A stretch of 64,000 bases of DNA from NCBI GenBank assembly GCA_016198755.1, contig JACQIB010000004.1:178760-242759 (forward strand). The letters run 5' to 3'. This DNA is from Candidatus Aenigmatarchaeota archaeon (GTDB taxonomy: Archaea > Aenigmatarchaeota > Aenigmatarchaeia > Aenigmatarchaeales > JACQIB01). Of this stretch, positions 17,029 through 25,074 are shown one piece after another; position 1 is the first letter of the stretch, and the number at the start of each line of letters is the position of its first letter. A model generated the notes under the pieces. That model was not told the origin of the DNA and ran no database searches. It worked only from the letters and a program-made list of their open reading frames with translations. Position numbers and translations under genes: made by a program.

Positions 17029-17158
17029 TGGTGGACTCGGTGGGATTTTCTCCAAACCCTTTTGGGGTTTGCAAAGACCTTTTCGGAAAAGGGATTTGCT
17101 TTGAACCCACAACCTCTTGCTTGCAAAGCAAGCGATCTTCCAGTTGATCTACGAGCCC
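17029..17158 (-). tRNA. tRNA-Ala(TGC) with T-loop intron at 59/60 (17046-17099); CCA encoded
   Basis: GGGCTCG/CGAGTCC acceptor with G3:U70, anticodon arm CTTGC-TTTGCAA-GCAAG; removing the intron restores GTGGG-TTCAAAT-CCCAC. Confidence 0.92.
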
Positions 17159-21652: not shown

Positions 21653-21703
21653 GTCGGTTGTTAGGAATTTTTGGAAATAGCTAAAGCTAAGCTGTAAAAA
21701 TAG

Positions 21704-21739
21704 GTCGCGGCCGATGATATTAGCGCCCCGAATAAAAAA
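21704..21739 (-). other. 3' strand of the pre-16S processing stem (BHB)
   Basis: TTTTTATTCGGGG-CGCT-AAT-ATCATCGGCCGCGAC pairs with 25257-25293. Confidence 0.85.
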
Positions 21740-21781
21740 TTTTGGAGGTGATCCAGCCCCACGTTCCCGTAGGGCTACCTT

Positions 21782-21889
21782 CTCATAGGAGTGCAGCCTG
21801 GCAAAATTATCCCTCTCAATTCACCTCAGTCCCCACTTGGGGCCCGCCTTTCTTTCTTTCATAGAGGAAAAATACAGACTACACTTCCT
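21782..21889 (-). other. 16S intron 8 (108 nt, E. coli 1501/1502)
   Basis: BHB CATA-AC|A...TATG-AG|A with inner stem GGAAGTGTAGTCTG/CAGGCTGCACTCC. Confidence 0.85.
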
Positions 21890-21891
21890 GT

Positions 21892-21922
21892 CTGTCAGTA
21901 TTGCAGCTTTCACTGCAAAACA
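21892..21922 (-). other. 16S intron 7 (31 nt, E. coli 1499/1500)
   Basis: BHB GTCA-TA|T...TGAC-AG|A with hairpin TTGCAG/CTGCAA. Confidence 0.85.
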
Positions 21923-22063
21923 TATGACTTAGCCTTTCTTGTAAGTCTCTGGCTCGACTCTTCCCATACCCATTGCTGGAAACGAAAAAAGCCTCGCCAA
22001 AGGCTCACTCAAATGGCTTGACAGGCGGTGTGTGCAAAGAACAGGGACGTATTCGGCGAACGA

Positions 22064-22908
22064 ATTCATGCTAGAAGCTTCGAAAAAGGTTTTATAATAT
22101 TAATCAACTTATACACTGATTGATTAACAAGAACATCATTATATTCTTCCTTTACAATATCTATAGCATCTTTTTGTATATTGCCTTCTAATATTGCTAT
22201 CAATCTTACATAGGGATATTTTTGTCGAATTTTCATAGCTCTATAAGCAAGTTCTACGGCTTGCAAACGTTTCCTATAATTGAAATTCATTTGCTTTACC
22301 TCAATTATTATTTTGGGTATATTTTCAGAAGGCAAGGCAAAATCTACTACAAAATTTCTATTGGTCCTCACTAGGGCATGAAACTTATGTGAAATGCCCA
22401 ATTTCTGAAAGATTTCTATATATCTTTTTTCTTGTTCTGTAGGACCTTTTATTATTGCACCTTTCAGAGATCTTTCTTTAGACGCCTTTAAACTCATTTT
22501 TCTTGCGCGTTCAGTATCTCTAAAAGTGCCGCGTTCGGAAATTTCATAATACCTGCGTATTAAGATTTCCCTAGAAGGAATTCTTTGCATGCATTTAATT
22601 TCTTCAAACACTTTGTTTATTACTTTTTCGTCTACACTTTTTCTAAATCCTTTCTCTATATTATAGACTGTGCCTTGACTCTTCCCTATAAACTTTGCTA
22701 ATTGCCACTGACTCATATTCAATATTAAACGTAGAATCAGCAATCTCTGCGGTTTTGTATATATAATTTCAGGTTTCAGTTTCCTTAAACTGTCTGTTGT
22801 TCTATATACTTCATCACAGAGATTTTTTAATTTTAGCTTGTTTATGGTAATCACCGATATTATATTATATCGGTAACTACTATTTAACCCTTTACAGAGC
22901 TTCTAACT
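22064..22908 (-). mobile_element. 16S intron 6 (845 nt, helix 43 loop) carrying a nuclease ORF
   Basis: Canonical BHB GCGAACG-TCAT-AA|A-GTTAGAAGCT / AGCTTCTAGC-ATGA-AT|T-CGTTCGC. Confidence 0.92.
22066..22854 (-). CDS. intron-encoded XRE-type HTH plus PD-(D/E)XK-like nuclease (putative homing endonuclease)
   Basis: MSQWQLAKFIGKSQGTVYNIEKG (HTH); TEQE..VVDFALP..IIIEVK (nuclease core). Confidence 0.75.
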   Translation of the reverse strand: MITINKLKLKNLCDEVYRTTDSLRKLKPEIIYTKPQRLLILRLILNMSQWQLAKFIGKSQGTVYNIEKGFRKSVDEKVINKVFEEIKCMQRIPSREILIRRYYEISERGTFRDTERARKMSLKASKERSLKGAIIKGPTEQEKRYIEIFQKLGISHKFHALVRTNRNFVVDFALPSENIPKIIIEVKQMNFNYRKRLQAVELAYRAMKIRQKYPYVRLIAILEGNIQKDAIDIVKEEYNDVLVNQSVYKLINIIKPFSKLLA

Positions 22909-23211
22909 TTATGACGTTCGCCTACTATGAATTCCGGCTTCATGTGGGCGAGTTGCAGCCCACAATCTGGACTAAGATTGGGTTTAGGGGGTTAGCTTTG
23001 CCTTTCGGCATTGCATCCCATTGTCCCAACCATTGTAGGACGCGTGTAGCCCAGAGAATTCGGGCCGTACGGACCTACCGTCGCCCACTCCTTCCTCTGC
23101 TTTAGCAGCAGCGGTCCCGCCATTGTGCTCTCTCCCCGGAGGGAAAGGTGGCAAATGGCAGCGTGGGTCTCGCTCGTTAACGGACTTAACCGCACGCCTC
23201 AAGGTACGAGC

Positions 23212-23372
23212 TTTCTCGTCTTAGCAGCCCTCATACAAAACATTATCTTACTTTTCTCTATGTTTTACATAATTAGCATTCCACCAACGTCGTATCAGTA
23301 TTAAGTTTGAATACTGGTTGCATATCGTTGTTGAAATTTTTCAATATCCCAATTAAATTGAGACTGCCAAGA
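23212..23372 (-). other. 16S intron 5 (161 nt, E. coli 1067/1068)
   Basis: Interrupts CGTCA|GCTCG; TCGT/ACGA central helix, inner stem CTTGGCAGTC/GGCTGCTAAG, relaxed 3' side. Confidence 0.85.
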
Positions 23373-23916
23373 TGACGATGGCCATGCAACTCCTCTCAGC
23401 TTGTCTGGTAAACCCGTTAGGCTGACCCTCATTCTGCTGTCTTCTCTGGTAAGATGTCCGGTGTTAAATCCAATTGAACCGCATCCTCCACTCATTGTGT
23501 GTTCCCCCGCCAATTCCTTTAAGTTTCAGCCTTGCGGCCGTACTCCCCAGGTGGCCCGCTTAACATCTACACTTCGGCACTGCATGTTCACGTAGAACGT
23601 GCAACACCAAGCGGGCATCGTTTACGGCTGGGACTACTGGGGTATCTAATCCCAATCGCTCCCCCAGCTGTCGCCCCTCACTGTCAGACTCGTTTTCGGT
23701 AGACGCCTTCGCCACAGGTGGTCCTCCACGGATTAAAGGATTTAACCCCTACACGTGGAATACCTCTACCGTCTCCCGATCTCAAGGCTTGGAGTATCTC
23801 CAGCGCGCCTGACAGTTAGCTGCCAGATTTCACCAGAGACTTTCAAGCCCAGCTACGGGCGCTTTAGACCCAATAAACGCGATAGCCATTTGGACCGCGG
23901 GTATTACCGCGGCGGC

Positions 23917-23947
23917 GTGTGCGAACAAAGTCTACTGACTTTGAACA
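23917..23947 (-). other. 16S intron 4 (31 nt, E. coli 520/521)
   Basis: Interrupts GTGCCA|GCCGCCGCGG; BHB GTGC-CA|T...GCAC-AC|G. Confidence 0.9.
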
Positions 23948-24159
23948 TGGCACCCGTCTTACCCAGTCCTTATTCGCCTAGGTTTTTAGCCTAAGCAAAA
24001 GCTCGTGCAAAGCACGAGCACTCGAGGTTCCCTTCTCACACGCTAATGCATTGGAAAGTTTTCGCTCCTGCTGCGACCCGTAGGCCCTGCGCTCATGTCT
24101 CAGAGCGCATCTGGAGGCTCACACTCTCATGTCCCCTACCCGTCACAGGCTTGTCAGTT

Positions 24160-24220
24160 TTATAAAGCAGGTAGCTTATGCTACCAAAAATTATTTTGGC
24201 AAACTAAGTTTGCCTATGCA
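24160..24220 (-). other. 16S intron 3 (about 61 nt, helix 11 loop)
   Basis: Removal restores GTCAGT-GTAAAGA-ACTGAC; junction uncertain by 1 nt. Confidence 0.8.
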
Positions 24221-24327
24221 CTTTACACTGACAACAACCTGATAGGCCGCAGTCCCATTCTATGGCGCCGGAGCTTTCACTTTTGGTGCATTCCAGCATC
24301 CAAAAACTATGGGGCATTAGCCTCACT

Positions 24328-24356
24328 TTTGCGTTCACTTTCAAAAGAAAGTGGAA
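24328..24356 (-). other. 16S intron 2 (29 nt, helix 8 loop)
   Basis: BHB TGCG-AA|T...CGCA-AA|A; removal restores TCTTGC-GAAA-GTGAGG. Confidence 0.88.
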
Positions 24357-24402
24357 TTCGCAAGATTATTCCCCACCATAGAGTAGGTTAACTACGTGTT
24401 AC

Positions 24403-25074
24403 TCAGCAGTGCGCCGAGGGCAAGAGCGGATTAAATAGAACCTTACCAGTCTTTTTACAATAAAAATAGTTTTTAAATTCCTTAGAAAGACATCTTACTT
24501 TTTCTAACTTTAGTGGATGTTTAAATTTTATTATTCTACAAAACTTTCTAAAATTTTTAGCACCTTTTATTCGCCACCAATATACATCGTTTTTTCCATA
24601 AACTTTTGATACATGAATACCATATGTTTCTAATAATTCTTTACTCCATATGCAAAAATCCTTAGATTTAATTTGTAGTTCTATTACAGGATATTCATAT
24701 ATAGACATCATGGTCTTTCTCTTATACCTTTGGACTTCTTTGAATACGGAACAATCACCATCAAAAAATCCTATAAGAAAATTCATCTTTTCTTTTCTAT
24801 TTATGTGCACTGGTGGAGTGATGTCATGAGACTTTTTCCCTGGTTTTATATGATAAAGTCTCTTAAATTTTTCGTATAGCTTACGATCACTTACCCTTAT
24901 CTGAAATACTCTTTTTCTTAATTTGTAAGTAACCTTGTTTTTTGCAAATTTTTGAAGATTTTTTACTATATCATCTCTGAAGCGCTTGTTATTTGTGTAG
25001 ACATAGACATACGGTCTATATTTTTCTAAATGACCATCTGCAGCTATTAAACCGGCCATATAAGAAAATTTCAT
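24403..25074 (-). CDS. intron-encoded double-motif LAGLIDADG homing endonuclease
   Basis: YMAGLIAADG and FLIGFFDGDC motifs; linear stop lies in the downstream exon. Confidence 0.9.
   Translation of the reverse strand: MKFSYMAGLIAADGHLEKYRPYVYVYTNNKRFRDDIVKNLQKFAKNKVTYKLRKRVFQIRVSDRKLYEKFKRLYHIKPGKKSHDITPPVHINRKEKMNFLIGFFDGDCSVFKEVQRYKRKTMMSIYEYPVIELQIKSKDFCIWSKELLETYGIHVSKVYGKNDVYWWRIKGAKNFRKFCRIIKFKHPLKLEKVRCLSKEFKNYFYCKKTGKVLFNPLLPSAHC

Follow-up and report, generated by a model that had tools for sequence, protein, structure and literature searches.

The window analysed here, a stretch of 64,000 nucleotides (nt) of contig JACQIB010000004.1 from Candidatus Aenigmatarchaeota archaeon (GenBank assembly GCA_016198755.1), carries on its minus strand a 16S ribosomal RNA (rRNA) gene in which two insertions, of 31 and 108 nt, lie at the decoding site with only the dinucleotide AC between them. 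The strand reads AAGTCATA, 31 nt, AC, 108 nt and AAGGTAGCC (coordinates in Table 1), and this reading matched the coordinates of an original prediction made from the letters of the DNA alone. The insertions are called intron 7 (31 nt) and intron 8 (108 nt), and each has a motif of the bulge-helix-bulge (BHB) type. Sequence comparison and predicted folding make it probable that both introns are removed, that AC is kept as a two-nucleotide exon, and that the upstream intron is removed first. Positions 1492-1505 are E. coli numbers, given by a count that starts at the AAGUC motif. The gene is the single 16S rRNA copy in a genome of 0.89 Mb (6 contigs, 89% complete); the genomes of relatives measure 0.3-2 Mb, and we take the host to be a small-genome (DPANN-like) archaeon.

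The interrupted decoding site

The conserved decoding-site string AAGTYRTAACAAGG occurred contiguously 0 times on both strands of the window and of all 6 contigs, as had been claimed. Both insertions interrupt the 3' strand of helix 44. With both taken out, the conserved mature sequence is back in place: AAGUCAUAACAAGGUAGCC, the reading of intron-free relatives, equals the predicted spliced product, and intron-free relatives of the same order read GGCTAAGTCATAACAAGGTAGCC, including A1497 with U1404, again identical to it; the AC exon is required to restore the AAGUCAUAACAAGG found in intron-free relatives. In the E. coli structure C1501, here a base of the micro-exon, pairs with G1401, and the window has this G1401 at 22026. 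The last 16S exon is 89-100% identical to its matches in relatives. The original prediction had also offered a compensatory 1404/1497 pair as independent support for the reconstruction. Both bases are present (T1404 at window 22023, in CACACCGCCTGTC; A1497 at window 21925) and support exon A, but the pair is common to most relatives, a clade trait, and gives no specific support to the micro-exon.

The assembly is of environmental origin and still a draft, in 6 contigs, and the layout might in principle be an artefact of assembly or binning, a chimera of reads from different organisms. We give this explanation almost no weight. This region is also found on a separate metagenome contig of 1796 nt (L071), where it differs by one 1-nt insertion in intron 8, so that the layout does not stem from an assembly slip. 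A third public data set contributed a 162-nt contig, ~94% identical to window 21809-21956, that runs from exon A through intron 7 and AC into intron 8 (depth 3.2; the RNA label of the run is guessed, and the run may be DNA), and the flanking exons are collinear with those of relatives. Close strains evidently share the two-intron layout.

Table 1. Features of the interrupted 16S rRNA gene, in window coordinates
Feature	Position	Strand	Basis or details
Upstream exon end AAGUCAUA	21923..21930	-	GUCA 21928-21925 (intron 7), CAUA 21926-21923 (intron 8)
Intron 7, hairpin mini-intron, 31 nt, between 1499 and 1500	21892..21922	-	Homology-defined junctions and motif
Dinucleotide exon AC, mature positions 1500-1501	21890..21891	-	Homology to intron-free relatives
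Intron 8, 108 nt, between 1501 and 1502	21782..21889	-	Family homology, covarying helix
Intron 8 core, kink-turn-like	21812..21867	-	CCUC 21867-21864, UAU loop, GA 21860-21859, GA 21817-21816, GAGG 21815-21812
Downstream exon start AAGGUAGCC	21773..21781	-	Runs into helix 45, anti-Shine-Dalgarno end ~21745
Helix 44 5' strand CACACCGCCUGUC	22020..22032	-	U1404 at 22023, G1401 at 22026
16S rRNA gene, seven insertions	21745..24467	-	cmscan, reading of 3' part, BLAST to relatives
Insertion, 29 nt	24356-24328	-	BLAST to relatives, motif check
Insertion, 61 nt, ambiguous motif	~24220-24160	-	BLAST to relatives, motif check
Hairpin mini-intron, 31 nt, 530 loop, helix GUGC/GCAC	23917..23947	-	Same build as intron 7
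Insertion, 157 nt	23371-23215	-	BLAST to relatives, motif check
BHB intron, 845 nt, helix UCAU/AUGA, inner helix 8/8, 262-amino-acid open reading frame	22064..22908	-	

The two introns and their counterparts in the phylum

A BHB motif consists of a central helix of 4 base pairs (bp) and two opposite 3-nt bulges, and is cut after the second base of each bulge. Both motifs were found as originally described, GUCA/UGAC with bulges UAU and AGA for intron 7 and CAUA/UAUG with bulges ACA and AGA for intron 8. In intron 7 the bulges UA·U and AG·A (the dot marks the predicted cut) accompany the helix half UGAC at 21897-21894, and directly beside the 5' bulge stands a 9-bp inner helix (21921-21913 with 21906-21898) that has a single U-U mismatch and is closed by the loop UGAAAG. 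At the homology-defined junctions the central helix scored 4/4 and the inner helix 7/8 (ungapped count), and the helix is present in the minimum free energy (MFE) fold of the precursor with a pair probability of 0.68-0.70. In intron 8 the inner helix has 9 bp and one bulged A (21888-21879 with 21796-21788); the helix half UAUG lies at 21787-21784, followed by the bulge AG·A at 21783-21781, the last A of which is exonic.

Intron 8 is one of a family whose members occupy this site in 19 further genomes of the phylum (15 relatives plus loci L132, L134, L136 and L139), four of them (G103, G197, G237 and G295) added by a pattern search of 371 genomes across the phylum. In the 15 relatives the exon (CAUAAC) is contiguous in the DNA. 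The helix was compared in 16 sequences, the 15 relatives and the window, whose exon half was set by coordinates. In the central helix 63/64 cells were paired, and sliding the partner by 1-3 reduced this to 1-37/64. The form CAUA/UAUG was present in 13/16, with CAUA/GAUG (3/4 paired) in G002, CGUA/UACG in G008 and UGUA/UACA in G053, so that double compensatory changes (C:G to U:A, A:U to G:C) are seen. An inner helix of ~9-11 bp and differing sequence was present in 16/16, with a single unpaired base in the 5' arm in 15/16. The sequences were aligned with MAFFT (alignment A1, 15 of the 16; G002 was omitted for length), and RNAalifold run on A1 predicted the exon-intron helix together with the inner helix, with compensatory changes in 8/11 pairs. 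An insertion of 27-31 columns between CAUA and AC stood in the window row of A1 only. The parse that MAFFT itself placed on the window, 27 nt, AC and 112 nt (at an ACAG repeat), gives the same product with junctions that carry no motif, and was rejected. From these comparisons intron 8 is, in all likelihood, an old, clade-wide BHB intron.

A conserved core of the approximate form ...AUGAnnGAAGAAAGGCGG-hairpin-GGAGGUGAAAUGAGAGG runs through the intron 8 family. Its four stem pairs covary in A1 (CG/UA/GC/AU/UG), in 12-14 of 15 rows per pair. The arrangement of the core (Table 1) resembles a kink-turn (k-turn), and the core may bind L7Ae. The core matched no Rfam family at E<=1, small RNA families included, and no guide arrangement like that of a box C/D RNA was recognised in it. 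Against the Rfam group I intron models the window had no match at the gathering score, and a search of 21700-22120 at E<=1 found none either.

Positions 1492-1505 were compared in 34 readable relatives. No insertion was present there in 16/34, and 14/34 had one intron, after ...CATAAC. In G053 the 1501/1502 intron is joined by a 32-nt intron at 1492/1493; G005, from the window's family, has introns at 1492/1493 and 1499/1500, the latter of 350 nt with the helix GUCA/UGAU. The exon left between two introns in the same strand measures 7 nt in G005 and 9 nt in G053. Insertions of 754 and 814 nt were found at 1499-1501, between AAGTCRTA and ACAAGG, in G015 (L029) and G057 (L038), respectively. Reading these two as BHB introns at 1500/1501 gave helix scores of 1-2 of 4 and was rejected, and neither matched an Rfam group I model at the gathering score; both seem to hold long coding stretches, broken by stop codons in L038.

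The window's layout recurs in G237 (L136) and G295 (L139), from two other families of the phylum. These read ...AAGTCGTA, 79 or 105 nt, AC, 36 or 41 nt, and AAGGTAGCC, and both keep G1401. Their upstream helix is GUCG/CGAC and their downstream helix CGUA/UACG, both changed to match G1497, and in sequence their introns show no relation to those of the window. A search with the layout as a pattern found it in 3/371 genomes, with 0 for a reversed control pattern; 201/371 genomes show any match to this part of the 16S gene, so that the true share of the layout may be higher. A narrower pattern that fixed CATA and TGAC gave 0/23 genome loci and 1/46 metagenome loci in rRNA context, and missed G237 and G295. 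A pattern for the 3' motif matched 30/371 genomes. On inspection 10 of its 14 new loci were set aside as not rRNA (L113, L114, L120, L130, L131, L133, L135, L138, L140 and L141), and the match in G045 was an intron-free variant. Altogether at least three families of the phylum have the two-intron AC layout, either retained or newly gained.

Two side observations concern the same region. Further insertions lie in helix 45, a little downstream of this site, after GGTAGCCGTA, in L040 (G003 contig 56), L134 (G197), L136 and L139. In G003 the 16S 3' end occurs in two versions, each on its own contig; one of them has C1404/G1497, and a mixed bin may be the cause.

These data also bear on a different parse of the locus, in which the 141 nt are one composite element that is removed in a single step or at other junctions, leaving mature rRNA without AC or with other bases at 1500-1501. 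Pairing of CAUA/UAUG with a bulge UG·U does yield a product of the correct length, 19 nt, in which 1500-1501 hold different bases, and the ACAG repeat lets MAFFT place the insertion otherwise. We nevertheless hold this parse to be very improbable: the UG·U reading has no inner helix beside the bulge, and within +/-8 nt of each junction a 4/4 central helix with a 7/8 inner helix was found at the originally proposed intron 7 junctions only. G1401 is retained, 16/16 intron-free relatives read AAC-AAGG, and G237 and G295 keep an internal AC and the same flanking motifs despite unrelated introns.

Probable order of removal and processing enzymes

The exon half-motifs of the two introns, GUCA and CAUA (the latter at 1496-1499), share 2 nt, so the two central helices are mutually exclusive. 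In DNA order the intron 8 helix is ACAG/UAUG and scores 1/4; without the 31 nt it is CAUA/UAUG and scores 4/4. Because the intron 8 motif is split in DNA order, its 5' cut would follow the excision and ligation of intron 7, and we infer that the order is obligatory. The original prediction of obligatory sequential splicing is supported by the split motif, with the restriction that strictly only the 5' cut of intron 8 is forced to be late, while its 3' cut may come earlier. Folding agreed with this order in the window: in the precursor ensemble that gave the upstream helix probability above, the downstream helix did not exceed 0.005, and without intron 7 its first three pairs reached 0.66-0.84 and the fourth 0.25-0.31. 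The canonical 3-4-3 form then lies 1.5 kcal/mol above the MFE fold. In G237 the downstream helix had a probability of 0.0 before removal of the upstream intron and 0.35-0.95 after it; the upstream helix of G295 had a probability of 0.41.

Several results weigh against this model. The upstream helix of G237 reached a probability of just 0.004. In G295 the downstream helix stood at 0.15-0.31 already in the precursor (0.37-1.0 after removal), so that an early cut at the intron 8 3' site is possible there. Intron 7 of the window has no outer helix h, since GGCUAA upstream and CAGGAA downstream are unpaired; in this relaxed HBh' form, shared by the upstream introns of L136 and L139, which likewise have no outer helix, cleavage would require an endonuclease that is tolerant. 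Thermodynamics does not settle the register of intron 8: 5 bp are possible in UCAUA/UAUGA, and the fourth pair faces competition from the first intron base (0.705 vs 0.25). If the register moved by one, the product would lack 2 nt, and conservation of the product alone selects the register. A generic BHB scan of the 2751-nt precursor (4/4 helix with G-U allowed, at least 4 contiguous inner pairs) returned 993 candidates against a mean of 964.5 in 30 shuffles. Finally, contigs from three public runs (word shares 0.06-0.09), taken at 90% likeness, left 21794-21981 uncovered except for the one 162-nt contig.

The generic scan was discarded as evidence, being no better than shuffles; it also missed introns 7 and 8, because each inner helix has a defect. 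The layout exceeds chance on other grounds, since the junctions are fixed by homology, the 4/4 helices with inner helices fall exactly there, and the layout recurs with compensation. As to the three runs, their contigs belong to other organisms, are 90-95% alike and lie on conserved exon parts, and the joints that they show across other introns are those organisms' own; the runs speak neither for nor against splicing here.

An alternative that keeps both BHB introns and the AC exon makes the order optional: a tolerant two-subunit endonuclease that recognises half-motifs might cut intron 8 at its 3' site, or at its 5' site too, in the unspliced precursor, while the surrounding rRNA structure holds the exons. 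The partial CGUA/UACG helix in the G295 precursor speaks for it; the downstream helix can be forced in the window precursor at a cost of 5.5 kcal/mol, the intron-7 hairpin remaining as an insertion; and two-subunit endonucleases accept relaxed motifs such as hBH and HBh', according to a review (PMC4090602). In all three genomes, however, the 5' bulge of intron 8 is replaced by ~37 to 111 nt before the first splicing (window 1/4), the two helices compete for the same two exon bases, and cutting both sides of AC before ligation would free the dinucleotide. On this balance an optional order is distinctly unlikely, though the strongest of the competing explanations.

That the insertions are not spliced and ligated at all, the gene being in decay, the rRNA fragmented or the insertions retained, is rated lower again than the composite element. 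The three sequencing runs gave no evidence of splicing at this site. Set against this, the gene is the sole 16S gene in an 89%-complete genome, its exons are conserved (1035 bits over the aligned part, 89-100% identity in the last exon), and the site is part of the decoding centre, in which breaks are known to inactivate; colicin E3 cuts two bases from the 5' end of the exon piece here. The motif helices also covary across genomes, which argues for selection for recognition.

Enzymes for such processing are encoded. Contig 1 carries two adjacent endonuclease paralogues of 178 and 173 amino acids (locus L002, 1462-1998 and 2000-2521, minus strand), each with both terminal domains, N and C, of the tRNA intron endonuclease (PF01974 and PF02778). 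The best PDB matches were 3iey_A and the second half of 5x89_A for the paralogue of 178 amino acids and the first half of 5x89_A for the other, 5x89_A being a fusion named 'EndA-like protein, tRNA-splicing endonuclease'. The pair would fit a two-subunit (alpha-beta)2 enzyme, a type that goes with non-canonical and multiple introns and relaxed motifs according to the same review (PMC4090602). RtcB is encoded as well (469.8 bits). The RtcB profile is split within a 1010-amino-acid open frame (contig 5, 42797-45628; L110, L111), with ~480 amino acids between profile positions 50 and 48, an insertion that looks like an intein.

With the anatomy of the locus, its homology, covariation and recurrence and the presence of the enzymes established, we infer that cleavage and ligation occur, upstream first, in the following way. 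In the primary transcript the upstream motif alone could form, the endonuclease would excise the 31 nt, and RtcB would ligate ...GUCAUA to AC. The CAUA/UAUG helix would then adjoin the ACA bulge, the endonuclease would cut the 5' site of intron 8, and RtcB would make the last joint, AC-AAGG. AC would always be attached to a larger RNA and never be free. Since AC would be lost if all four sites were cut at once, or both its sides before ligation, the endonuclease and RtcB would have to alternate strictly.

A more far-reaching proposal is that the dinucleotide exon, instead of being a mere accident of insertion that the cell tolerates, is maintained as an enforced-order maturation lock on the decoding centre, with intron 8 acting as an assembly factor or timer. 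The small subunit would then decode only after two successive rounds of cutting and RtcB ligation in a fixed order, and the k-turn-bearing intron 8 would be a likely binding site for L7Ae. This requires ligation to be faster than the second cleavage and hence a coupling of endonuclease and RtcB on the pre-ribosome. We consider it speculative and rather unlikely.

The rest of the 16S gene, known systems and significance

The 16S gene was located with cmscan and the Rfam model RF01959 (1035 bits), whose alignment begins at 24467 and ends at 22842 because the 845-nt intron separates the last 200 nt of the gene; the archaeal covariance model thus ends the 16S gene 1.1 kb too early. The 3' end was read from the DNA at ~21745, with the terminal sequence GGAUCACCUCC. 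Given 21890-22120 of the minus strand alone, Infernal returned a eukaryotic small-subunit (SSU) model on top and aligned the intron-7 hairpin as helix 45. With the archaeal model truncated and the eukaryotic SSU model matching, standard annotation will mis-call the 16S 3' end.

Comparison by BLAST with ten relatives, together with a junction-centred motif check, gave seven insertions in the gene (Table 1), one fewer than the eight introns implied by the labels 7 and 8, which are kept here. Of the six insertions other than intron 8 (intron 7 counted), 5/6 have a 4/4 helix and an inner helix of at least 6/8 at or within a few nt of the homology-defined junctions. The mini-intron in the 530 loop has the same length as intron 7, starts with UGUU and contains a 6-7-bp hairpin; the two showed no sequence match by BLAST, and when introns 7 and 8 and the 530-loop mini-intron were compared with the whole genome by BLAST, each matched itself alone, with no repeated family by sequence. 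The open reading frame of the 845-nt intron (22854-22066, minus strand) matched in Pfam the helix-turn-helix domain HTH_3 alone, at 25 bits, and a LAGLIDADG domain was not found in it by the same search; the frame may code for a homing endonuclease of an unusual kind, or be some other passenger gene. Elsewhere in the window, a transfer RNA (tRNA) match at 17089-17151 (minus strand; 30.9 bits, barely over threshold, model positions 8-63) has a 6-nt insertion in the T-loop and may be another interrupted RNA gene.

Twintrons of Euglena plastids and fungal mitochondria offer one precedent for order, the excision of one intron rebuilding the splicing signals of the other. They are group II/III or group I ribozymes with the inner intron inside the outer one, whereas here the motif of the second intron is recognised by protein, the first intron sits in the exon-side half of that motif, and a 2-nt exon is retained. 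Closer in mechanism are archaeal tRNAs, in which close BHB introns are removed in order; this ordered removal, invoked by the original prediction, is stated in PMC8450103. The enzyme system and logic of such tRNA genes, with 2-3 close BHB introns (Thermoproteales, Thaumarchaeota), apply here too. The present case differs in its host, the 16S decoding site, in the 2-nt exon, and in central helices that share two exon bases.

In 16S genes of Thermoproteales, PMC4496867 places introns of Pyrobaculum oguniense 8 nt apart (loci 1205/1213) and 7 nt apart (901/908), and recognises hairpin introns of <50 nt as a class, so that a short hairpin BHB intron beside a second BHB intron has a parallel there. 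At those distances, the downstream 6-nt exon half-motif fits in the 7-8-nt exon and no order is forced. In the window only 2 nt are left and the motif is split, and the site (1499-1502) and lineage (small-genome archaea, 0.4-2 Mb) differ. The same stretch of 16S also serves as an insertion site in other small-genome archaea, a group I intron at SSU/1498 being listed for Nanohaloarchaeota in PMC6125680. That intron is a self-splicing ribozyme, whereas the window introns match no Rfam group I model and carry BHB motifs. A 1-nt exon reported for a pre-messenger RNA of Arabidopsis (PMC4674806) is likewise far shorter than its flanking recognition elements, in an unrelated, spliceosomal mechanism and a protein-coding transcript.

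Our literature search, of incomplete coverage and with most subscription journals outside it, found no 2-nt exon and no overlapping BHB motifs in rRNA, in line with the original remark, whose author knew of no 2-nt rRNA exon. The enzymes and the motif are the same as for known BHB introns; what is new is an exon shorter than the exon half of the motif. It is the smallest exon found for BHB introns in the searchable literature and stands in the most conserved strand of the decoding site. That a BHB motif can be interrupted in its exon-side half makes the locus a clean natural test substrate.

The widely used reverse primer site at ~1492-1510 is split by both introns. With that site split and covariance-model annotation truncated, such lineages will be missed or mis-annotated in surveys. 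The structured intron at 1501/1502, which no fewer than 20 genomes in a phylum of small-genome archaea carry, is of interest in itself, and the recurrence of the two-intron layout in three families suggests selection and reliable handling by the cell.

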